Origin: an uncultured Anaerolineaceae bacterium
GTDB lineage: Bacteria > Chloroflexota > Anaerolineae > Anaerolineales > E44-bin32
Direction of reading: 5' to 3'
Length of the DNA stretch: 39,533 bases
Assembly: GCA_964569445.1 (NCBI GenBank)
Contig: CAZMVJ010000003.1
Coordinates: 1-39,533, forward strand
The notes under the pieces are model-generated. The model was not told where the DNA came from and did no database searches. It worked only from the letters and a program-made list of their open reading frames with translations. The position numbers were made by a program, and so were the translations under genes. How positions within the stretch are numbered: position 1 is the stretch's first letter; every line of letters begins with the position of its first letter. This document shows, piece after piece, positions 1-17,801 of this stretch.

Positions 1-782
1 CGCCCGGGTTCGTCGGCGCCGACCTGGAGAACCTGGTGAACGAGGCCGCCATCCTGGCCGCCCGACGTAACAAGAAGAGCATCGGCCCCAGTGAATTCCA
101 GGAATCCATCGAACGGGTCATCGCCGGTCCCGAACGCAAGAGCCGTATCATCAGCCCGGAGGAAAAGCGTATCGTCGCCTACCACGAGGCCGGGCATGCC
201 GTGGTGACGCACGTCATCCCCGACGGCGACCCGGTGCACAAGGTCAGCATCATCGCCCGCGGCATGATGGGTGGCTTCACCATGGCTCTGCCGACGGAAG
301 ATACCATTCTGCAATCGCGCAACAAGCTCAAGGCCGACATGGCCATGCTGCTCGGCGGTCGGGCGGCGGAGGAGATCGTCTTCAGCGACATCACCTCCGG
401 CGCCGCCAACGACCTGGAACGGGTGACGCGCCTGGCGCGCAATATGGTCACCCGCCTGGGGATGAGCGCGGACCTCGGCCCGCTGACCTATGGACAGAAA
501 GAGGAGCTGATTTTCCTGGGGCGTGAGATCTCGGAGCAGCGCGACTACTCGGAGACCGTCGCCGAGCGCATCGACGCCGCCGTCCGCTCGCTGGTCGACG
601 AGTCGTATGCGCGCGCCCGGCGCATCCTCAACCAGTACCGGGCGCAGCTCGACAACATCGCCCGTCGCCTGATCGAGGTCGAGACGCTCGACAGCGAGGA
701 GTTTGTCAGGATCTTCGACCAGCCGGTCGAGCCGAAGGTCAGCGGCACGCCGATCCCGATGCCGCAGGCGACGCCGGCCTAG
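1..782 (+). CDS. ftsH: ATP-dependent zinc metalloprotease FtsH, C-terminal part (5' end cut by window edge)
   Basis: The frame is open from base 3 with no start codon (PGFVGADLENLVNEAAILAARR). It has the HEAGH zinc motif (VAYHEAGHAVV) and an M41 protease domain. Stop TAG at 780-782. Confidence 0.95.
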   Translation, partial: PGFVGADLENLVNEAAILAARRNKKSIGPSEFQESIERVIAGPERKSRIISPEEKRIVAYHEAGHAVVTHVIPDGDPVHKVSIIARGMMGGFTMALPTEDTILQSRNKLKADMAMLLGGRAAEEIVFSDITSGAANDLERVTRLARNMVTRLGMSADLGPLTYGQKEELIFLGREISEQRDYSETVAERIDAAVRSLVDESYARARRILNQYRAQLDNIARRLIEVETLDSEEFVRIFDQPVEPKVSGTPIPMPQATPA

Positions 783-5766: not shown

Positions 5767-7116
5767 TTGGCCCTGTCGAACGTGCGCTGCCCCAATTGCC
5801 AATCCCCGCTGTCGATCCGGGTCGAGCAGTTGATCGACGTCGAGCGCGATCCCGGCGCCAAGGCGCGCTTGCTGAGCGGCAGCCTCAATCGAGTGCGCTG
5901 CCCGTCCTGCGGCTGGGAAGGCCAACTGGCGACGCCGCTCGTCTACCACGACCCGGGCCACGAACTCCTGCTGACCTATATGCCGGTCGAGATCAACTTG
6001 TCCAAGGCGGAGCAGGAACGACTCATCGGCCAGTTGATCAATCAGGCGATCACCCAGCTCCCGGCCGAACGCCGCAAGGGCTATCTCTTCCAGCCTCAGG
6101 CGGCCCTGACCACCCAGGGATTAGTCGAACGCATTCTCGGGGCGGATGGGATCACTCACGAACAGTTGGAGGAGCAGCGCGCGCGGGTGCGGCTGCTGGA
6201 GGCTCTCCTGCGGACGCCGCCCGAGGGGCAGGCCGCCTTCGCCGCACAGCACGACGCCGAGCTCGACGAGACCTTCTTCCAGCTGGCGGCGGTGAGCCTG
6301 CAGGCGGCGCGCGACGAACGCGCGGCGCGGGCGTTGAGCGAACGCCTGGAAGCGGTGCTGCCGCACACGGCTTACGGCAAGCGGATCCTGGCCCGCGAAG
6401 TGGAAGTGCGATCGGCCGCCGAGAGCTTAAGCCAGCTTAAGGAGCCGTTGACGCGGGAGGCAGTTCTCGATCTGATCCTGCAGGCACCGAGCGAAGAGCG
6501 CCAGGTGACGCTCGCCAGTCTGGCGCGCCCGGCTCTCGACTATGCGTTTTTCCAGGCACTGAGCGAACGTATCGAGCGCGCCGAGGCGCCGGAGAAGGTC
6601 CGGTTGGCGGCCGTTCGGCAGCGGCTGCTGCAGGTCACCCAGGACATCGACGCTGCCCAGGAAGCGCGCGTCGCCGACGCCGGGGCGGTGCTCCAGGCGC
6701 TGCTGCAGGCCGAAGACCTCGATCAGGCGCTGGCGCGGGCCTTGCCCGGCGTGGATGACTTGTTCCTCAGCCTGCTGACCTCCAATCTGCAGGCGGCGCA
6801 GCAACGCGGCGACCAGAAGACGTTACAACGCTTGATGGAGATCGACCGCCGGCTGAGGGAGATCATCCACGAGAGCCTGCCTCCCGGGCTGCAGGTGGCG
6901 CAGCAAGTGCTCGACGAACCTGACGAAGCCGCCGCGCAGCGTCGCCTCGATGAGGCGGGCGAAGCGCTCGACGACGATCTTCTGAACACGCTGCTCTCGA
7001 TGGCGCAACGCCTCGAAAGTTCCGGCGACGACGAGGGGGCCGCTCGCGTACAGCGGCTCCATCGCTACGCCGTCGGAGTTTCGATGCGCCGGAAGATGGC
7101 AGGCGGCAAGGCCTAG
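5767..7116 (+). CDS. CpXC-type zinc-ribbon protein with a long helical Ala/Leu/Glu-rich C-terminal region
   Basis: TTG 5767 lies 7 nt after GAGGT (5755-5759). The N-terminus carries paired motifs VRCPNCQSPL and VRCPSCGWEG (CpXC pattern). The remainder is predicted helical with no recognisable enzyme motif. Confidence 0.7.
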   Translation: MALSNVRCPNCQSPLSIRVEQLIDVERDPGAKARLLSGSLNRVRCPSCGWEGQLATPLVYHDPGHELLLTYMPVEINLSKAEQERLIGQLINQAITQLPAERRKGYLFQPQAALTTQGLVERILGADGITHEQLEEQRARVRLLEALLRTPPEGQAAFAAQHDAELDETFFQLAAVSLQAARDERAARALSERLEAVLPHTAYGKRILAREVEVRSAAESLSQLKEPLTREAVLDLILQAPSEERQVTLASLARPALDYAFFQALSERIERAEAPEKVRLAAVRQRLLQVTQDIDAAQEARVADAGAVLQALLQAEDLDQALARALPGVDDLFLSLLTSNLQAAQQRGDQKTLQRLMEIDRRLREIIHESLPPGLQVAQQVLDEPDEAAAQRRLDEAGEALDDDLLNTLLSMAQRLESSGDDEGAARVQRLHRYAVGVSMRRKMAGGKA

Positions 7117-9789: not shown

Positions 9790-11811
9790 TTACGCCTGGT
9801 GGATCAAGCGCTCCAGTTCGGCCGCTTCGATCGTCTTGACTCCCAGGGCGCGAGCCTTGTCCAGCTTCGAACCGGGTTCGGCGCCCAACAACAGATAGTC
9901 GGTGCGCGGGCTGATGCTGCCGGCGACCTTGCCGCCGTGCTTCTCGATGAGCGTCTTGGCATCCTGCCGCGAGAGATTCGGGAGGGTGCCGGTGATCACG
10001 AAGGTCTTCCCGTTGAGCGGCCGACGAACGGAGGCCGAGTGGATGGCGCGCGGCCAAACGCCGGCCGTCTTGAGCTTCTCCAGGAGCTTGTGATTGCGGC
10101 GACGGGCGAACCACCCTGTGACGGCTTCGGCCGTCTCCGGCCCGATTCCCGGCACCGCCTGGATATCGTCTTCCGTGGCGGACGCCAGGGACCCCAGATC
10201 GCGGAAAGCGCCCGCCAGATCGGCGGCGACGGTCTCACCCACGCCGCGTATCCCCAGGGCATTGATCAGACGCGCCAACGGCTGCGCGCGGGAGGCCTGG
10301 ATGGCGCGCACCAGATTGTCCGCCCGCCGCTCGGCGAAACCCTCCAATTCGAGCAGGTCGTCCACCGTCAGCCGGTAGAGGTCCGCCACATCTTTGAGGC
10401 GGCCCTCGGCGACGAGGAGCTCGGCCACTTTGATGCCCAAACCCTCGATGTCCATGGCGCTGCGTCCGGCGAAGTGCTCGAGGTGGCGGACGAGCTGCGC
10501 CGGGCAGGCGGCATTGACACAGTATAGGGCGACTTCGCCCTCGCTGCGCTGCAGGCGCTCGCCGCAGGAAGGACACGACTTGGGCAGCGCGTAGCGCCGT
10601 TCTTTCCCGGTGCGGGCTTCGACCACCGGGCCGATGACGTAGGGGATCACCTCGCCGGCGCGCTTCAGCAGCACCCGGTCGCCCAGGCGGAACTCCTTCT
10701 CTTCGATGTAGTCGAAATTATGCAGGGTCGCCTGGCGCACGACGACGCCGCCGACCAGCACCGGCTCGAGAACGGCGAAGGGCGTGATGACGCCCGTCCG
10801 GCCGACGTTGACTCCGATGTCTTGCAACACCGTGCTGACCGTTTGCGCCGGGAACTTGAAGGCCACGGCGCCGCGCGGGTCCTTCCCAACGACGCCCAGG
10901 GCCGCCGCCAGCGCGAGATCGTTGATCTTGAGGACCATTCCGTCGGCCTCGAACGGGAATGAGGCGCGCCGTTGGGCGCCTTCCTGGGCGTAGGCGATCG
11001 CCTCGTCCAGGTCGCGGCACAGGCGCGCCTGGTCCGCCACGGAGAACCCCAACCCACGCAGGTATTGTAGGACGTCCCACTGCGTTTTCGGCGCCGACCG
11101 GTCGCCGTCGACGATGGCATAGGCCAGGAAGCGGATCGGACGAGTGGCCGTCAGCGACGAGTCCAGCTGCCGCAGGGCGCCCGCGGCGGCGTTGCGTGGG
11201 TTGACGAAAGTGCGTTCTTCGGCCTGGCGCAGGCGCTCGTTCATCGCCTCGAAATCCGCCACCGGGATGTAGGCCTCGCCGCGGACGACCAGCCGTCGAG
11301 GCGCGGCCGGCCGGCCGTCTTCGACCGGAATCCGCAGCGGGAGATTGCGGACGGTGCGCAGGTTAGCCGTCACATCCTCCCCGGTTTCGCCGTCGCCGCG
11401 GGTCGCCCCCTGGGAAAAGACCCCTCGTTCGTAGGTCAGGACCACTGTCAGGCCGTCCATCTTCGGCTCGACGACGAACTCGGCTTCGGCTGCACGCTGG
11501 TCGAGGCGGATCGCCCGATCCAGCCAGGCCCGAACTTCATCGGCCGTGTAGGCGTTGCTCAGGCTGAGGATCGGCGCCGGGTGGACGACCCGGGAAAAGC
11601 CATCGGCCACTCCTCCCCCCACGCGCTGCGTCGGGGAGTCCGGACTGCGAAGCTCGGGGTGAGCCTGCTCCAACGCCAGGAGTTCTTGCAGCCATTGGTC
11701 GAATTCCGCGTCGCTGACGACGGGCGAGTCCAGCACATGGTACCGGTAGGAGTGAAAGTTCAGCAGCCTGCGGAGCTCGGCTGCTCGGGCCGTCAGGTCC
11801 TTCGGGGGCAT
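9790..11811 (-). CDS. ligA: NAD-dependent DNA ligase
   Basis: 673 aa. Adenylation lysine motif VEPKMDGLTV, Zn-finger CPSCGERLQRSEGEVALYCVNAACPAQ, HhH repeats, and a C-terminal BRCT (GKTFVITGTLPNLSRQDAKTLIEKHGGKV). Confidence 0.97.
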   Translation of the reverse strand: MPPKDLTARAAELRRLLNFHSYRYHVLDSPVVSDAEFDQWLQELLALEQAHPELRSPDSPTQRVGGGVADGFSRVVHPAPILSLSNAYTADEVRAWLDRAIRLDQRAAEAEFVVEPKMDGLTVVLTYERGVFSQGATRGDGETGEDVTANLRTVRNLPLRIPVEDGRPAAPRRLVVRGEAYIPVADFEAMNERLRQAEERTFVNPRNAAAGALRQLDSSLTATRPIRFLAYAIVDGDRSAPKTQWDVLQYLRGLGFSVADQARLCRDLDEAIAYAQEGAQRRASFPFEADGMVLKINDLALAAALGVVGKDPRGAVAFKFPAQTVSTVLQDIGVNVGRTGVITPFAVLEPVLVGGVVVRQATLHNFDYIEEKEFRLGDRVLLKRAGEVIPYVIGPVVEARTGKERRYALPKSCPSCGERLQRSEGEVALYCVNAACPAQLVRHLEHFAGRSAMDIEGLGIKVAELLVAEGRLKDVADLYRLTVDDLLELEGFAERRADNLVRAIQASRAQPLARLINALGIRGVGETVAADLAGAFRDLGSLASATEDDIQAVPGIGPETAEAVTGWFARRRNHKLLEKLKTAGVWPRAIHSASVRRPLNGKTFVITGTLPNLSRQDAKTLIEKHGGKVAGSISPRTDYLLLGAEPGSKLDKARALGVKTIEAAELERLIHQA

Positions 11812-11953: not shown

Positions 11954-12316
11954 ATGAGTGCCGGACGGATCATCGCCTATATCGCCGCCGCCATCCTGAT
12001 CTTCTTCGGTTTCCTGTTTGTCTACGGCGCCTTCAGCCCGCAGGGGTCCGCCGGCTGGATCCCGATCGGCCTGATCAGCCTGGGCGCCGGTTTCGTCCTG
12101 ATTTGGCTCGCCGGACGGCGCGCGGCCGCCGCCGGGAAGCAGGAGATCGTCCAGCGCATCGAGATCTCGGGAGATGTCAGCCTGGAGAAAATGACCTGCC
12201 GCAACTGCGGCGGGGCTCTCAGCCCGGAAAACGTCAAGGTCGTGGCCGGCGCCGCCGTCGTCACCTGCCCCTTCTGCGGAACCTCGTATCACCTCGAAGA
12301 AGAGCCCAAGTGGTAG
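11954..12316 (+). CDS. Small membrane protein (2 predicted TM) with a C-terminal CxxC...CxxC zinc ribbon
   Basis: ATG 11954 lies 8 nt after GGAGG (11941-11945). Hydrophobic segments IIAYIAAAILIFFGFLFVYGAF and WIPIGLISLGAGFVLIWLA. C-terminus CRNCGGAL...CPFCGTSYHLEEEPKW. Possible promoter TTGCCC (11898-11903) / TAGACT (11922-11927). Confidence 0.6.
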   Translation: MSAGRIIAYIAAAILIFFGFLFVYGAFSPQGSAGWIPIGLISLGAGFVLIWLAGRRAAAAGKQEIVQRIEISGDVSLEKMTCRNCGGALSPENVKVVAGAAVVTCPFCGTSYHLEEEPKW

Positions 12317-12396
12317 GGCGGCCGAGGATCGAGGCCGCTCGACGATCTTCCCGCGAGCTTGGAGCTCGCAGGAAGACGACAACTGGGGGACCCAAG

Positions 12397-14052
12397 ATGC
12401 GAAAGGCACTCCTAGTCCTCGCGCTGGCGCTCCTGGCCATCGCCTTGATCGCCTCCCCGGCGTCCGCCCAATCGTATTCGTTTCAGGTCCCCGAACAGGC
12501 GGTCGACGTCTACCTGGAGGAGGACGGCTCGATGCGCCTGGTATACCGGATCGTGTTTGCCAACGATCCGGGCGCGCCGCCGATCGATTTCGTCGATGTC
12601 GGGCTGCCCACCGAGGATTACGACCTCGGGTCCGTGCTCGCCTGGGTCGACGGCCAGCCGATCTCGTCCATCGAGGCTTCGCCCTACGTGACCCCGGGGA
12701 TCGCCCTCGGGTTGGGCGGCGCGTCGATCCCGGGCGGCCGCACCGGCGAAGTCGTCGTCGAGATCCCGCGCGTCGACAATGTCCTTTACGCCGGTGACGA
12801 GGCGGGCTACGCCAGCGCCAAGTTCTCCCCGAGCTGGTTCGACAGCCAGTTCGTCCGCGGCTCGACGGACATGACCGTGACCTTCCATCTCCCACCGGGA
12901 GTCCAGCCGGACCAGCCCCGCTGGCACACCCCCACCGGCGGCTGGCCGGAATCGCCTCCGGCGGTCGGGCTGGACGAGCAGGGGCGCATTGTCTACTCCT
13001 GGCGTGACACCTCGGCCAACGCCTACACCCAGTTCATCTTCGGGGCGTCCTTCCCTTCGACGGTCGTTCCCGCGGAGACCCTGCAGACGCCGACCTCCGG
13101 ACTCTTCACCGGACTCTTCGCCGCCTTCTCGTCCTTGATCGCCGGTATCGCCGGATGCTTCTTCCCTCTCCTTCCGGTGCTGATCGTCGTGGGCCTGATC
13201 TTCTTCGCCCGCAGCCGCTCGCGTCTGGCCTACCTGCCGCCGAAGATCGCCGTCGAAGGCCACGGGATCAAGCGCGGCCTGACGGCCGTCGAATCCGCCG
13301 TCTTGCTGCAGACCGGCCTCGACAAAGTCCTGACGATGATTCTCTTCGGCGTTGTCCGCAAGGGCGGCGGCCGCGTGATCCAACAGGAGCCTCTTAAGAT
13401 CGAAGCCCTCCCGGCGCCGACGACCGAGCTGCGCGCCTACGAGACGGCCTTCATCAAGGCGGCGGTCGAGCCCGATTTACGTCTCCGCCAGCGGGCCTTC
13501 TCCGACCTGATGATCGACCTGGTCCGTTCGGTGCAGACCAAGATGAAAGGCTTCAGCACGGGCGAGACCCGCGACTATTACCGCTCGATCATGCGCAAGG
13601 CGTGGGCCGAGGTCGAGGCCGCCGGGACGCCCGAGGTTCGCTCGGAGCGCTACAGCGAAGGCCTCGAATGGTTGATGCTCGATGGCGACTTCGACGATCG
13701 AACGCGCCGGACGTTCACGTCCGGCCCGGTCTACGTGCCGGTGTGGTGGTCGAACTACAGTCCGGCTCGCCCGGCGACGCCCGTCGTCAGCGGAACCTCA
13801 GCCAGGGGATCGGGCGCGGTCTCGCTGCCGCACCTGCCGGGCGCCGACTTCGCCGCGTCGATGGCTCGCAGCGTGCAGAACAGCGCCGGCGCGCTCGTCG
13901 GCAACGTCGCCGCCTTCACCCAGGGCGTGGCCAAGACGACCAATCCGCCGCCGGTCACGCGTTCCTACGGCGGTTCGCGCAGCGGGGGCGGCTGCGCCTG
14001 TGCCTGCGCCTGCGCCGGATGCGCCTGCGCGTGTGCCGGAGGCGGAAGGTGA
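12397..14052 (+). CDS. Signal-peptide / TM-anchored envelope protein (tentatively DUF2207-like) with a C-terminal Gly-flanked (Cys-Ala) repeat tail
   Basis: ATG 12397 is in frame inside ORF 11581-14052 and follows GGGGGA. Signal peptide MRKALLVLALALLAIALIASPASA/QS. A hydrophobic stretch of about 37 residues (GLFTGLFAAFSSLIAGIAGCFFPLLPVLIVVGLIFFA) is followed by RSRSR. The C-terminus is GGSRSGGGCACACACAGCACACAGGGR. The DUF2207 resemblance is from memory only. Confidence 0.8.
   Translation: MRKALLVLALALLAIALIASPASAQSYSFQVPEQAVDVYLEEDGSMRLVYRIVFANDPGAPPIDFVDVGLPTEDYDLGSVLAWVDGQPISSIEASPYVTPGIALGLGGASIPGGRTGEVVVEIPRVDNVLYAGDEAGYASAKFSPSWFDSQFVRGSTDMTVTFHLPPGVQPDQPRWHTPTGGWPESPPAVGLDEQGRIVYSWRDTSANAYTQFIFGASFPSTVVPAETLQTPTSGLFTGLFAAFSSLIAGIAGCFFPLLPVLIVVGLIFFARSRSRLAYLPPKIAVEGHGIKRGLTAVESAVLLQTGLDKVLTMILFGVVRKGGGRVIQQEPLKIEALPAPTTELRAYETAFIKAAVEPDLRLRQRAFSDLMIDLVRSVQTKMKGFSTGETRDYYRSIMRKAWAEVEAAGTPEVRSERYSEGLEWLMLDGDFDDRTRRTFTSGPVYVPVWWSNYSPARPATPVVSGTSARGSGAVSLPHLPGADFAASMARSVQNSAGALVGNVAAFTQGVAKTTNPPPVTRSYGGSRSGGGCACACACAGCACACAGGGR
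13993..14037 (+). repeat. Imperfect TGYGCS hexanucleotide repeat encoding CACACACA-G-CACACA
   Basis: In frame with the CDS: TGC GCC TGT GCC TGC GCC TGC GCC GGA TGC GCC TGC GCG TGT GCC. Confidence 0.9.
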
Positions 14053-15428
14053 GCTGGTTGCCCGGGCGCACATCCGCCACCGCGCGCGATTCGCGCCAAG
14101 GGCGCTTGGAGGTCTTTCGCCGCGCCACGCCGCGCGGCTCGGCGACGATCCACCTGCGCCGCGCCGCCGATGGGCGAGCCGAGCTCTTCATCAACGCCAA
14201 CCAGGTCTACCGCCTCAATCCGACGGCGGCGCAGATGGCCAACTTGATCCTCTCGGAGATTCCCAGCGCGGAAGCCGTGCGCCGCTTGGCGCGCGTTTTC
14301 CGCGCCGACCGCCGCCGCCTGGCCCGCGACCTGGCCGCCTTTCGCGCCGATCTGGAAGGACTGCTCGACCCGGAATCGGTCTGCCCCGTGCACGACCTGA
14401 ATCTCGAGGTCATCGCACCGTTCTCCGAGATCCCCGACTCCCCCTACCGGATGGACCTGGCGCTGACGTATCGCTGCAACGACAATTGCGCGCACTGTTA
14501 CAACGCCCGACCGCGGACCTACCCCGAACTCCCCACCGAGGACTGGCGGACGATCCTCGACCGTCTGTGGGCCGTCGGCGTCCCCCACATCTGCTTTACC
14601 GGCGGCGAGGCGACGCTGCGCCACGACCTGCCTGAGCTCGTCGCCCACAGCCACGGCCTGGGTCACATCGTCGGGTTGCTCAGCAACGGGCGCCGCCTTT
14701 CCGACGCCGCCTTCGTGCGTACGCTGACCGCTGCAGGCCTCGACCACGTCCAGATCACGCTCGAATCGAGTCGGGAGGATGTCCACGATCGGATGGTGGG
14801 AGCTCGCGGGGCCTGGCGGCAGACGGTCGCGGGAATCCGGAACGCCCTGGAGGGCGGCCTGTTCGTCATGACCAACACGACGCTGCTCGCCGACAATGTC
14901 GGGCACATCGGCGAGACGATCGACTTCCTGGCCGAGGTGGGCGTACCCACGATCGGCTGCAACGCCTTGATCCACGCCGGGCACGGCGCCGAAGTCGGCT
15001 CCGGTCTGCCGGAGGGCTGGTTGGCGCCGGTGTTGCGAGACGTGCAGAGCCGAACCGAGGCTCATGGACAGCGGCTGATCTGGTATACGCCGACACAATA
15101 CTGCCACTTCGACCCCGTGGAGGCCGAGCTGGGCGTCAAAGGCTGCACGGCGGCGCGTTACAACATGTGCGTCGAACCAGATGGCGCCGTTTTGCCTTGC
15201 CAGTCCTACTATCAATCCGTCGGGAACATCCTGCGGGATCCGTGGGACTCGATCTGGAACCACGACCTTTCGATGTGGCTCCGGCAGCGGAAGTACATGT
15301 CTGACGACTGCCGCGCCTGCTCGCTCGTCGCCGAATGCGGGGGCGGCTGCCCCCTGAGCCCGCCGGCCGCTACTTACGGATCCGGCTGGATCCCGGTTGG
15401 GGATGTCTCCCTGGCCGGGCGAGGTTGA
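14049..15428 (+). CDS. Radical SAM / SPASM-domain enzyme with an N-terminal PqqD-like (RRE) domain
   Basis: GTG 14049 overlaps the upstream TGA 14050-14052 (GTGA). RRE-like segment ELFINANQVYRLNPTAAQMANLILSEIPSAEAVRRLARVF...FRADLEGLL. CxxxCxxC motif LTYRCNDNCAHCYN; GGE motif CFTGGEATL. SPASM cysteines GCTAARYNMCVEPDGAVLPC and CRACSLVAECGGGC (CX2CX5CX3C). Confidence 0.9.
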   Translation: MSWLPGRTSATARDSRQGRLEVFRRATPRGSATIHLRRAADGRAELFINANQVYRLNPTAAQMANLILSEIPSAEAVRRLARVFRADRRRLARDLAAFRADLEGLLDPESVCPVHDLNLEVIAPFSEIPDSPYRMDLALTYRCNDNCAHCYNARPRTYPELPTEDWRTILDRLWAVGVPHICFTGGEATLRHDLPELVAHSHGLGHIVGLLSNGRRLSDAAFVRTLTAAGLDHVQITLESSREDVHDRMVGARGAWRQTVAGIRNALEGGLFVMTNTTLLADNVGHIGETIDFLAEVGVPTIGCNALIHAGHGAEVGSGLPEGWLAPVLRDVQSRTEAHGQRLIWYTPTQYCHFDPVEAELGVKGCTAARYNMCVEPDGAVLPCQSYYQSVGNILRDPWDSIWNHDLSMWLRQRKYMSDDCRACSLVAECGGGCPLSPPAATYGSGWIPVGDVSLAGRG

Positions 15429-15433
15429 GCGCC

Positions 15434-16603
15434 ATGACCGACATTCTGCATCGCGTATTCCCGCCCGCGCCCGAACGGCCGATCGTCCCGCCCGGGACCT
15501 ATCACTGCATGCAGGTCGACCCGCCAGCCCAACCGCGCCGTCTGCACCTGCGGGTCGAGTCCGACGGCCGGGGTCTGCTGATCGTCAACGCTTCGACCGT
15601 GCTCCACCTGAACGAGAGCGCCACGGCTCACGCCTGGCACCTGGTCCAGGGCAACAGCGAGGCCGACGCGGCCGAGTGGATGGCGCGGCGCTTCCGCATC
15701 AGTCGCAGGCGGGCCTTGAAAGACGGTCGGCTCATCCGGGACCAGGTCGAGTCGCTCGCCGAAAGAGAGGACCTCGACCCGGTGATGGTCATGGGGCTGG
15801 GGCGGGCCGATCCGTACGGGGCGCGTGCGACGGCCCCCTATCGTCTTGACTTGGCCCTGACCTACCGTCTCGCCGATGGCGTGTCGGTGGACCCACAGGC
15901 GCGCCGGCGGGTCGATCATGAGCTCACGACCGAGGAATGGAGAGGCGTCTTGGACCAGGCCTGGTCCATCGGGATTCCGCACGTCATCTTCGTCGGCGGT
16001 GAACCCACGGTCCGCCCGGATCTGCTCGACCTGATCCGGCATGCCGAGCAGCTCGGTCAGGTGTCGGGCGTCGTTACCTCCGCCGAAGGCCTGCTTACGC
16101 CGCGGCGACTGGAGGGATTGGCCGCCGCCGGCGTCGATCATCTCCTGGCCGTCGTCGATCCGAAAAGCGCGTCATCGCTGGACGGGCTCCGGCAGGCTGT
16201 GGCTTCCGACGTCTTTTGCGCGGCTCACCTGACGATTGATCCGAAGGACGAAGCGATCATTATCGAGGATCTTCAGCGAGTTCGCGAGACGGGGGTGACG
16301 CACGTCTCCCTGAGCGCGCCGCCCGGGGCGGCAGGCGCCGCCGCGCTCGGAGTCGCTCAGCAGGCTCTGGCGGAGGCCGGACTGAGCCTGGTGTGGGATC
16401 TCCCCGTGCCCTTTGCCGGCCACAACCCGATTCGTCTCGAGGCCGGTGCCGGCCCTGAGGCCGGGGCCTGGCTCTACATCGAGCCGGACGGCGACGTGCT
16501 GCCGGCGATCGGCGCGGAGACGGTGCTGGGCAACGTTGCGCGCGATTCGATCGCCGACATGTGGCGCCATGCGGCGGAAGGCCTGGCCCTTCCCGCGAGC
16601 TGA
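15434..16603 (+). CDS. Degenerate radical-SAM/SPASM paralog retaining the RRE-like domain but lacking all Fe-S cluster cysteines
   Basis: ATG 15434 lies 5 nt after the upstream stop. PYRLDLALTYRLADGVSVDPQ aligns with PYRMDLALTYRCNDNCAHCYN of the neighbour. IFVGGEPTVRPDL aligns with CFTGGEATLRHDL. YIEPDGDVLPAIGAETVLGNV aligns with CVEPDGAVLPCQSYYQSVGNI. Only 2 Cys occur in 389 aa, and the protein ends before the CX2CX5CX3C block. Confidence 0.8.
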   Translation: MTDILHRVFPPAPERPIVPPGTYHCMQVDPPAQPRRLHLRVESDGRGLLIVNASTVLHLNESATAHAWHLVQGNSEADAAEWMARRFRISRRRALKDGRLIRDQVESLAEREDLDPVMVMGLGRADPYGARATAPYRLDLALTYRLADGVSVDPQARRRVDHELTTEEWRGVLDQAWSIGIPHVIFVGGEPTVRPDLLDLIRHAEQLGQVSGVVTSAEGLLTPRRLEGLAAAGVDHLLAVVDPKSASSLDGLRQAVASDVFCAAHLTIDPKDEAIIIEDLQRVRETGVTHVSLSAPPGAAGAAALGVAQQALAEAGLSLVWDLPVPFAGHNPIRLEAGAGPEAGAWLYIEPDGDVLPAIGAETVLGNVARDSIADMWRHAAEGLALPAS

Positions 16604-16627
16604 CGCAGGCCCCCACCCCGGCCAACC

Positions 16628-17392
16628 ATGGCCCGCCCTGATCCCATCGATCGGCGACACCTGCGTTTCACCGAACAGGCCGCCTGGACGGCGGCACTTC
16701 GCGCGCAGCTGCTAAGCCGGATTCCCGACGAGGCCGCCGCCCTCCTGCTGGAGGTCGGCGCCGGGACGGGTGCCGTCGCCGGCGATCTCGCCGCTCAGCG
16801 TCCGGCGGCGCGGGTGATGGCGCTCGACATCGATCTGGCGGCCTGCCGTTACGGGGCGGAGCATGCTGCCCGTGCGGCCTGGCAATGCGGCGACGCCCAC
16901 GCGCTGCCCTTCCGGTCGTCGTCCCTCGACGCCACCCTCTTCCACTTCGTGCTGCTGTGGCTGGACGATCCGGCCCAGGCGTTGGCCGAGGCCGTGCGCG
17001 TCACGCGCCCCGGCGGCTGGGTTGCGGCGTTGGCCGAGCCCGATCATGCCGCCCGGCTCGACTTCCCCGATGTCCTGGCGCGCCTGGGCGAGCGCCAGAC
17101 AGAGGCGCTGGCCATGGAAGGCGCCGACGTCCGGATGGGCCGGAAGCTGCGCGCCCTCTTGGCTGCGGTCGAGCTTGAGGATGTGGAATGCGGCGTGCTC
17201 GGCGGGCAGTGGCACTCCGGCGCGGGGGCCGGCGAATCTTCGCTCGAGTGGGAGACGCTGCGCCGCGACCTGGACCTGACCGTTCCGGCGGCGGACCTCG
17301 ACGCGCTCGAGGCCTTCGATCGCGGGTCCTGGGAGCGCGGTGAACGCGTGCTCTTCGTTCCGACTTTCTACGCCATAGGGCGCGTAACCTGA
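16628..17392 (+). CDS. Class I SAM-dependent methyltransferase
   Basis: Motif I LLEVGAGTGAVAGDL, followed by acidic ALDID and post-II/III motifs (LDATLFHFVLLWLDDP, VTRPGGWV). Confidence 0.85.
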   Translation: MARPDPIDRRHLRFTEQAAWTAALRAQLLSRIPDEAAALLLEVGAGTGAVAGDLAAQRPAARVMALDIDLAACRYGAEHAARAAWQCGDAHALPFRSSSLDATLFHFVLLWLDDPAQALAEAVRVTRPGGWVAALAEPDHAARLDFPDVLARLGERQTEALAMEGADVRMGRKLRALLAAVELEDVECGVLGGQWHSGAGAGESSLEWETLRRDLDLTVPAADLDALEAFDRGSWERGERVLFVPTFYAIGRVT

Positions 17393-17503: not shown

Positions 17504-17580
17504 GGTCTTACCGGCTGCACCAGCCAGCGTCTAGCGGATTGCGGAGGATCGCCAGATGTCGTCAAACCCCCACCCCCTAT

Positions 17581-17757
17581 CCCCCTCCCCCCCGCAATGA
17601 TGAGACTTTCTACGTTTGCGCTGTCCTGCGGGGGGAGGGGGAGGGATTCTTCAAAGGGGATGGGGGTGGCTTCGCCACCCCCATCCCCTTTGAGACTCTT
17701 TCCCCCCTCTCCGCCACGCGCCTTGGATTTGAGACGAGCCTCAGCGCGGAGAGGGGG
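17581..17757. repeat. Tripartite GC-rich hairpin array (long-loop hairpin, TTC-loop hairpin, long-loop hairpin)
   Basis: (a) CCCCCTCCCCCCCGC (17581-17595) pairs with GCGGGGGGAGGGGG (17628-17641), differing by one C/G. (b) A perfect stem GGGGATGGGGGTGGC-ttc-GCCACCCCCATCCCC (17656-17688) is extendable to 17652-17692. (c) CCCCCTCTCCGC (17703-17714) pairs with GCGGAGAGGGGG (17746-17757) around a 31-nt loop. Confidence 0.65.
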
Positions 17758-17801
17758 TCAGGGGGTGAGGTGGAAGACGGTTTTTTCGCATGCTCCAAGT
17801 G

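Follow-up and report, generated by a model that had tools for sequence, protein, structure and literature searches.

Organization of the Cassette

What does a radical S-adenosylmethionine (SAM) enzyme of the peptide-maturing kind act on when no small precursor gene accompanies it and its neighbour is a large membrane protein with a cysteine-rich tail? The question is raised by a locus in the 39,533-nt stretch of DNA analysed here (the window), taken from contig CAZMVJ010000003.1 of an uncultured Anaerolineaceae bacterium, in which five tightly packed open reading frames (ORFs) on the forward strand, g1 to g5, occupy positions 11954–17392, as shown in Table 1. The cassette appears to encode an undescribed system of chemical maturation whose substrate is the tail of a protein and not a small peptide. 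A preliminary description of this DNA had proposed five same-strand genes with gaps of at most 80 nt, and the ORF list gives all of them at the same coordinates, with 80 nt between g1 and g2, 5 nt between g3 and g4, and 24 nt between g4 and g5. The stop codon of g2 and the GTG start codon of g3 overlap in the GTGA at 14049–14052. A small precursor ORF was sought in the cassette and in the 400-nt spacer downstream of it and none was found, the gaps of ≤80 nt being too small, and no peptidase or ABC/MFS transporter was found inside any version of the cassette.

Table 1. Features of the g1–g5 cassette, and the adjoining ligA gene, in the window.
Feature	Residues (aa)	Position	Strand	Basis or remark
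g1, membrane protein	120 in total	11954..12316	+	ORF, hydropathy, weak Pfam matches
g2, type I membrane protein	551 in total	12397..14052	+	ORF, AlphaFold2 model
g2 signal peptide		12397-12471	+	sequence/model
g2 beta-sandwich ectodomain	26-225	12472-13071	+	AlphaFold2 model, predicted local distance difference test score (pLDDT) >93
g2 transmembrane (TM) region	~234-274		+	hydropathy
g2 winged-helix and helical domain, predicted cytoplasmic	279-445	13231-13731	+	AlphaFold2 model
g2 leader-like segment	476-519	13822..13953	+	LP.LPG.DFAAS, amphipathic helix, TNPPP
g2 Gly/Ser/Arg-rich variable spacer	520-532	13954..13992	+	sequence hypervariable
g2 core tail CACACACAGCACACAGGGR	533-551	13993..14049, stop 14050-14052	+	alignment
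g3, RiPP recognition element (RRE), radical SAM and SPASM	RRE ~20-106	14049..15428	+	Pfam, AlphaFold2 model, alignment
g4, cysteine-less paralog of g3		15434..16603	+	homology to g3
g5, class I SAM-dependent methyltransferase		16628..17392	+	Methyltransf_11 73.5 bits
ligA, NAD-dependent DNA ligase		9790-11811	-	adjoins the cassette divergently in the window and in L003

The C-Terminal Module of g2

The end of g2 is built of a leader-like segment, a variable spacer and a Cys-Ala core, which is the layout of the precursor of a ribosomally synthesized peptide with post-translational modifications (RiPP), placed at the end of a large protein. In the window protein the tail end reads GGGCACACACAGCACACAGGGR, and the fragment predicted for trypsin or Arg-C after the last spacer Arg is SGGGCACACACAGCACACAGGGR; the seven Cys of the tail follow a C-x-C spacing. 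When 1.84 billion cluster representatives were searched exhaustively, 867 g2 relatives (50%-identity representatives) were obtained. Among the 120 closest g2 clusters (50–94% identity), 118 have exactly CACACACAGCACACAGGGR as their final 19 residues, the two exceptions being P0209, which starts CVCAC-, and P0146, a truncated record. All full-length relatives (352/352), down to about 30% identity, keep the tail, with a grammar of (C[A/V])2-5 blocks ... CACA[G/S]GG[R/A]. The most common forms among these 352 are (CA)4G(CA)3GGGR (136), (CA)3G(CA)4GGGR (97), (CA)2G(CA)4GGGR (47) and (CA)5G(CA)3GGGR (38), and rarer ones have one block, or three, such as CVCACVSCACVCACVSCACACAGGGAG. The tail is thus near-invariant while the rest of g2 falls to 30–50% identity, a pattern that supports the reading, set out below, that g3 acts on it. 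In the fetched loci, 88 identical tails are encoded by 86 distinct DNA sequences, which between them draw on the full set of synonymous codons for Cys, Ala, Gly and Arg and on all three stop codons, so it is the peptide, and not a DNA repeat, that is under selection. This codon diversity rules out a DNA-level repeat or an artefact, and the tail peptide is, judging from the codon record, under clear purifying selection.

The leader-like segment is likewise conserved, with invariant columns at P478, L480, P481, G482, F485, A486, A487, F507, V511, T515, N516, P517 and P519 in 43 homologs, and its LP.LPG.DFAAS motif is kept in the g2 proteins of the archaeal and type B loci described below. It is a candidate recognition sequence for the RRE of g3. 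Many RREs bind a W/Y/L-x-x-P/L/I recognition sequence, according to one survey (PMC12710340), and the LPHLP of g2 fits this pattern loosely, as a lead only. The spacer that follows is about 70% Gly plus Ser, with a median of 18 residues from the NP motif to the first tail Cys.

Architecture and Topology of g2

The AlphaFold2 model of g2, built from a 43-sequence alignment, adds to the domains in Table 1 an amphipathic helix at aa 483–515, after which the tail is disordered. In this model the high-confidence beta-sandwich covers aa 28–225, and a winged-helix-like unit with a helical bundle covers aa 297–441. Foldseek matched the ectodomain to the luminal domain of oligosaccharyltransferase subunit 1 (Ost1)/ribophorin and to the N-domain of M1 aminopeptidase, which is generic sandwich similarity. 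A profile search of the PDB with the g2 alignment gave nothing meaningful, and g2 fell into no NCBIfam family. The relation to DUF2207 that had been suggested for g2 did not hold up, as neither PF09972 nor any other Pfam family matched even at E ≤ 10. The plan of DUF2207/YciQ-like proteins (signal peptide, beta-rich ectodomain, TM segment, cytoplasmic region and Gly-rich low-complexity C-terminus) is similar to that of g2, but an invariant Cys-Ala core and a radical SAM partner are not DUF2207 features.

A single TM segment was predicted at the matching position in 141 of 172 g2 homologs, with a net charge of about +3 after it; type B g2 paralogs have one or three hydrophobic segments, as judged by eye. 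From this parity and the positive-inside rule we infer that g2 is oriented N-out/C-in and that its C-terminal domain and tail are cytoplasmic. The tail would then be reachable by an Fe-S/SAM enzyme and would share the compartment of g3.

Second g2 copies with the same tail were found in tandem at L046:3066-5462, L050:5605-7929, L031:5868-7880 and L048:6176-7882, and in L046 and L050 the ectodomain of the second copy is duplicated, giving about 770–800 aa. Two-ectodomain forms of 765–838 aa were also found among the database matches (P0147, P0148, P0150 and P0241-P0244).

Distribution of the Cassette

The homologs of g2 fell into 3039 clusters and those of g3 into more than 6000, the majority of them from metagenome-assembled genomes (MAGs) of Anaerolineales/Chloroflexota, and many of the g2 and g3 matches lie on contigs of identical size. 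A scan for the g3 pattern, with each GTDB species represented by one genome, gave at least 599 matching stretches, of which at least 585 encode a g3 relative. Linkage was counted at the locus level, around g3 matches, in 83 loci, namely the best 80 of the at least 599 stretches (80 species genomes, all Anaerolineae, Thermanaerothrix daxensis GNS-1 and a MAG labelled Anaerolinea thermophila among them) and three obtained by exact look-ups. A tailed g2 lies just upstream of g3 in 81/81 evaluable loci: CACACACAGCACACAGGGR-stop precedes g3 in 78 of the 83, (CA)3G(CA)3GGGR in three, and two end at a contig edge. The gene g1 precedes g2 wherever the sequence reaches, a separate g4 is present in 79/83 loci and g5 in 68/83, and many of the absences fall at contig ends. 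The arrangement recurs in 80 independent species genomes, far beyond chance.

The tail-coding genes in 96 loci are all g2 homologues, the complete ones encoding 544–838 aa. Both members of the tandem g2 pairs in four loci are tailed, and the extra tail-coding ORFs of these loci (L031, L046, L048 and L050) are full-length g2 paralogs. The absence of a separate small precursor gene, as reported in the preliminary description, was therefore borne out in these loci as well.

Linkage was also seen outside the type A arrangement of the window. With the most divergent g2 forms as seeds, a scan of metagenomes gave contigs of about 46% GC on which the cassette consists of g1, g2 and g3 only; the NCBI record of one of them, L085, is Candidatus Bathyarchaeia, and another, L087, also encodes the archaeal ribosomal protein S6e and aIF2-gamma, as read by eye. 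Neither g4 nor g5 was found in the archaeal loci examined. In a type B lineage, which also belongs to Anaerolineae (e.g., Promineifilaceae), the order is g1-g3-(two small genes)-g4-g2-g2-g5 or g1-g3-g4-g2-g5. The rearranged order, the other flanks and the archaeal contigs show that the linkage survives both rearrangement and a jump between domains of life. The synteny of the radical SAM gene with a Cys-rich-tailed protein, on which the preliminary description had staked its proposal, thus extends from all evaluable loci to type B and Bathyarchaeia. Neither outcome that would have counted against that proposal, a lack of such synteny or a small precursor gene consistently nearby, was seen, and by this sequence survey the conserved core is g1, g2 and g3, with g4 and g5 as bacterial accessories.

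Two high-GC contigs, L093 and L094, at first resembled cassettes of g2 and g5 without g3 and g4; this exception was rejected because longer contigs of the same subfamily have g1-g3-g4 just upstream, so that the two represent a rearranged cassette ending at the contig edge. In L095, the region between type B g3 and g4 (L095:5641-6901) encodes a 179-aa polytopic membrane protein and a 232-aa soluble protein, and two radical SAM-like genes follow g5 (L095:12645-14890), one HemN-like by eye and one with CNRWCPDC.

A phospholipid trio (CDP-OH_P_transf, Lip_A_acyltrans and PAP2) lies on the same strand between g3 and g4 in about 12 loci, for example at L062:3142-5306 and also in L043, L044, L046, L050, L055, L056, L059, L022 and L030. 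In L001, an acyltransferase and a glycosyltransferase adjoin g1. The trio was regarded as an adjacent housekeeping operon rather than a component of the system; the presence of phospholipid genes near the cassette could be a coincidence or could reflect a connection to membrane lipids.

The Radical SAM Enzyme g3 and Its Neighbouring Genes

The domains that had been read in g3, a PqqD-like RRE, a radical SAM core with CNDNCAHC and a SPASM region with CX2CX5CX3C, were confirmed by Pfam and by the motifs. The Pfam scores are 25.7 bits for PqqD PF05402 (cut-off 23.4), 88.5 for Radical_SAM and 36.3 for SPASM PF13186. The CX3CX2C motif lies at aa 143–150 (14475–14498) and the SPASM motif at aa 421–434 (15309–15350), with seven conserved SPASM Cys. 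The invariant Cys of g3 are C112, C143, C147, C150, C352, C366, C384, C421, C424, C430 and C434, and C143, C147 and C150 are invariant in 40 g3 sequences with the archaeal and type B ones included. The AlphaFold2 model of g3 (predicted template modelling score (pTM) 0.79) has an N-terminal RRE of strands and three helices (aa 20–106), a partial TIM barrel and a SPASM region. A sequence search of the PDB placed SkfB first (1.4e-25), followed by PqqE, BlsE, GDGT-MAS, SuiB and CteB, and the leading Foldseek matches of the model were SkfB, SuiB, BlsE, PqqE and CteB. SkfB, SuiB and CteB align to the model over 430–460 columns, RRE included; these three are solved RRE-containing peptide maturases, two of which make Cys thioethers. 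In NCBIfam, g3 drew 61 matches, all far below the cut-offs, the best being PqqE with 128.2 bits against 381, and membership in a named radical SAM family (PqqE, NirJ, AhbC/D, SkfB, AlbA, MftC, GeoRSP, ScmE, StsB, WgkB or ACGX) was rejected because no cut-off was reached. The g3 protein carries all the motifs that mark an active RRE-dependent radical SAM/SPASM peptide maturase, and it is apparently active.

The g4 protein is 32% identical to g3 over 386 aa (E 9e-48), the N-terminal RRE region included, and scores 39 bits for Radical_SAM and below threshold for SPASM, with a remnant of the TIM barrel and a GGEPT motif. It has no Fe-S cysteine motif, and its 78 orthologs have a median of one Cys. 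In the preliminary description g4 was a paralog with an RRE and without Fe-S cysteines; the loss of the cysteines is evident, and the RRE is seen through homology to g3 only, not with the PqqD model. A type B g4 (L095:6976-8274) keeps the C-terminal CX2CX5CX3C (CDICPGLVICAADC) and has lost CX3CX2C, whereas type A g4 has neither, which suggests a stepwise decay of a duplicated maturase. We presume that g4 is catalytically dead and serves as a non-catalytic partner or substrate chaperone. The assignment of g5 as a class I methyltransferase was upheld by the Methyltransf_11 match in Table 1; g5 reached no NCBIfam equivalog, its PDB neighbours (RlmA and the lanthipeptide methyltransferase LahSB) reflect generic similarity only, and it is presumed to be a tailoring enzyme.

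The g1 protein has two N-terminal TM helices (aa 5–54) and then a CxxC...CxxC zinc ribbon (CRNC...CPFC, aa 82–108) that is predicted to be cytoplasmic; its weak Pfam matches are to Prok-RING and to zinc-finger/zinc-ribbon types. The protein was found in type A and type B Anaerolineae and in Bathyarchaeia, and an ORF with CxxC..CxxC..PKW-stop occurs in 78 of 96 fetched loci. The C-terminus is EEPKW-stop (12299–12313), and the PKW end is present in 69/69 orthologs and also on archaeal and type B g1. From this conservation, PKW may be a docking motif or a second target of modification.

Proposed Mechanism and Alternative Explanations

On balance we think it probable that g3 has the g2 tail as its substrate and that the modified tail remains part of g2, a relation of enzyme and substrate that is drawn from gene linkage, motifs and models. 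The C-terminal leader-spacer-core module is built into g2 as it is made; in this scheme, the RRE of g3 would dock on the conserved helix, and the spacer would feed the Cys-Ala core into the active site, where g3 would install radical-mediated modifications in place. As to their nature, thioether cross-links, in which a Cys sulfur would be joined to a backbone or side-chain carbon with Ala or Gly as acceptors, are the leading candidate because the closest characterised relatives (SkfB, AlbA, StsB and CteB) make them; by this analogy they are a tentative guess, more doubtful than the enzyme-substrate relation itself. The g4 protein, keeping an RRE-like domain, would serve as a non-catalytic partner or chaperone, g5 would add a methyl group, e.g., on a thiol or on the C-terminal carboxylate, and g1 would be the membrane partner of g2. 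Since the core does not vary and neither a protease nor an exporter accompanies it in the cassette, the product probably stays on g2, and the invariance of the core across the whole class points to a structural, redox or metal-binding role rather than to an antibiotic. The finished tail is thus probably such a module and not a released natural product.

Several observations weigh against this scheme. The CA repeats vary, with two to five per block and one to three blocks, which speaks against one fixed cross-link topology; the variation fits per-residue modification or simple metal binding equally well, and if the tail is modified it favours a repetitive per-unit modification or a ladder over one fixed macrocycle. 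In the window g2 the hydrophobic stretch is 41 aa long and AlphaFold2 draws two helices in it, so that the cytoplasmic location rests on the homologs and on the positive-inside rule. The scores of g3 lie under every curated cut-off, so its chemistry is not transferable from any known enzyme. Moreover, the invariant PKW end of g1 is an alternative target, which the preliminary description had not considered.

That last observation belongs to an explanation in which the tail would work without modification, as a metallothionein-like C-x-C ladder serving as a metal, Fe-S or thiol-redox motif, and g3–g5 would act elsewhere, most plausibly on the EEPKW of g1, possibly by a Lys/Trp-type carbon-carbon cross-link as made by StrB/SuiB or WgkB. 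A variable number of CA repeats would fit a ligand array, the PKW end is kept in every ortholog, archaeal and type B ones included, g3 aligns with SuiB over its full length and has partial matches to WgkB (71.7 bits for the window g3 and 119 for the archaeal g3), and the RRE-type domains of g3 and g4, two in all, leave room for two docking peptides. We nevertheless consider this explanation unlikely, as g3 scores far under the WgkB cut-off of 650, the adjacent Lys-Trp does not have the spacing of known KxxxW or WGK substrates, and g1 is without a leader-spacer-core layout; in addition, it is g2 and not g1 that is translationally coupled to g3 in type A, and in type B g5 comes directly after g2. 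Very unlikely, in our view, is that g2 is an oversized RiPP precursor from which the modified core would be cleaved to give a free small peptide with a bioactive or signalling function. The combination of leader, spacer and core with an RRE-radical SAM-SPASM enzyme and a methyltransferase is indeed the grammar of RiPP clusters, from which the preliminary description had reasoned, but none of the versions of the cassette yielded a protease or exporter, and the core, which does not vary across a bacterial class and hardly varies in archaea, is unlike the cores of natural products. The 480-aa 'leader' would itself be a conserved two-compartment membrane protein with an ectodomain that is confidently folded in the model, and the cassette lies among housekeeping genes, adjoining ligA.

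The composition of the tail, an 18-residue Cys/Ala/Gly stretch of mean hydropathy +1.6 and then one Arg, bears a loose resemblance to C-terminal sorting domains, and phospholipid genes lie inside the cassette in some genomes. The tail might accordingly be read as a membrane-embedded small-residue helix, a tail anchor or a sorting or lipidation (S-acylation) signal, with the radical SAM gene linked for another reason. This seems highly improbable, given that only 15 residues are hydrophobic, fewer than a TM helix needs, that no sortase-type partner is co-inherited whereas g3 always is, and that the lipid genes occur in only about 12 loci. Even less credible, and already disfavoured, is that the five genes are neighbours merely by inherited synteny in one lineage and have no joint function. 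The wider type A neighbourhood (ligA, Lit-like, DUF58 and MoxR) is also conserved, as this explanation would have it, but the linkage persists in the rearranged type B with different flanks and in archaeal contigs of about 46% GC, and the g2 stop overlaps the g3 start.

Comparison with Known Systems

The sactipeptide and ranthipeptide maturases (SkfB, AlbA, StsB, CteB and PapB) share with g3 the combination of RRE, radical SAM and SPASM/twitch, and their systems, as here, have a Cys-rich C-terminal core encoded beside the enzyme gene. Their known substrates are short dedicated peptides that are then cleaved and exported, whereas the candidate substrate here is the tail of a 551-aa membrane protein and a protease or exporter was not found in the cassette; g3 also lies far below the NCBIfam cut-offs of SkfB (94.8 vs. 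300 bits) and AlbA (68.8 vs. 850). With PqqE/PqqD/PqqA and MftC/MftB/MftA the cassette shares an invariant core peptide, cofactor-like and not antibiotic-like, and a PqqD-type RRE. It differs from the PQQ and mycofactocin systems in having no Glu...Tyr or Val-Tyr core, in the fusion of the RRE to the enzyme and in a product that is likely protein-bound.

Cys residues of a folded protein are the target of a SPASM radical SAM enzyme in QhpD/QhpC and in anSME with its sulfatases, and what is formed remains in the protein. These systems embody the same concept as proposed here, with a whole protein as substrate, and anSME is among the fold matches of g3. QhpC is a small soluble subunit with Cys-to-Asp/Glu links, and we know of no fused RRE, dead paralog or membrane-protein substrate in the QhpD and anSME systems. 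The target motif of anSME is C/S-x-P/A-x-R, which on direct reading is absent from CACACACAGCACACAGGGR, and g3 does not belong to the family at the sequence level. Of the StrB/SuiB and WgkB group, SuiB is the second-best fold match of g3 (450 columns), and g1 ends in Lys-Trp; unlike in these systems, a KxxxW or WGK motif is absent here and the Cys-rich tail is the better-positioned substrate. The ACGX system (TIGR04340/TIGR04341) pairs a radical SAM/SPASM enzyme with a repetitive, low-complexity target of the Ala-Cys-Gly type. The archaeal g3 scores 69 bits against its cut-off of 400, the model is outside the best 25 of the 61 NCBIfam matches of the window g3, and the ACGX target is a separate short peptide, unlike the g2 tail.

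Overall, the RRE, radical SAM and SPASM features of the known maturation systems are present, and a short precursor, a protease or exporter and a score above a curated cut-off are not; for g1 and g2 there is no family model. A role in anti-phage defence was rejected, since PADLOC gave generic matches only (viperin-like radical SAM matches with 47 bits and one methyltransferase) and nothing for g1 or g2. No description of the system was found among the 8 million papers and preprints searched, and Chloroflexi or Anaerolineae terms drew none in two surveys of RREs and radical SAM enzymes. The absence of a matching Pfam, NCBIfam or PADLOC family and of a description in that literature agrees with the preliminary description, in which the arrangement had not been recognised as a described system.

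Flanking Features

The cassette is flanked by the divergent ligA on one side and by a convergent gene for a Lit-like membrane protein on the other, and farther out lie housekeeping genes (an aminotransferase, a PUA-methyltransferase, DUF58, a MoxR ATPase and YfhO). In L001, ligA is upstream of g1 with two genes between them. The adjacency of ligA is conserved local synteny within type A Anaerolineae and probably not functional. At 5767–7116 of the window, after a GAF-PAS histidine kinase, a 449-aa protein with an N-terminal CpXC zinc-binding domain is encoded; the pair is also present in L003 and has no visible relation to the cassette.

A terminator-like hairpin lies 3′ of g5. The spacer between g5 and the convergent Lit-like gene contains a G/C-rich nested hairpin of about 200 nt (17560–17770) with the perfect core GGGGATGGGGGTGG-cttcg-CCACCCCCATCCCC, a minimum free energy of -133.8 kcal/mol (z -8.4 vs. 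shuffles) and a single copy in the window, which is probably a bidirectional terminator or a structured intergenic element. A search of the cassette leader and spacer against Rfam found no riboswitch or known RNA and only sub-threshold matches to hairpins resembling microRNA precursors, and a promoter scan gave nothing usable.

Significance

To our knowledge, nearly all that is known of RRE-bearing radical SAM/SPASM maturases comes from small-peptide natural products and free cofactors. Here, the leader-core logic appears to be grafted onto the predicted cytoplasmic tail of a large membrane protein, together with a conserved partner that is presumably a dead enzyme. The system is not rare, as a g3 relative is encoded in at least 585 genomes at the species level, of which the best 80, all Anaerolineae, carry the cassette, and Anaerolineae are a dominant group in sediments, sludge and subsurface habitats. 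The tail is short (19 residues), invariant and easily synthesised, so the chemistry is directly testable. In a more far-reaching version, which we regard as rather doubtful, the modified tail would be a new protein-tethered, peptide-derived prosthetic group, for example a module with a (methyl-)thioether ladder or of polythiolate type for binding a metal or metal cluster or for passing on electrons or sulfur, and g1-g2 would form a previously unrecognised redox or sensing device of the membrane, found in practically all Anaerolineae and also in Bathyarchaeia. If the proposed maturation of the tail is true, RiPP-type chemistry would extend to the in-place maturation of proteins, two new protein families (g1 and g2) and one new radical SAM subfamily with its pseudoenzyme would be added, and there would be a handle on an evidently important membrane function in these poorly studied anaerobes.

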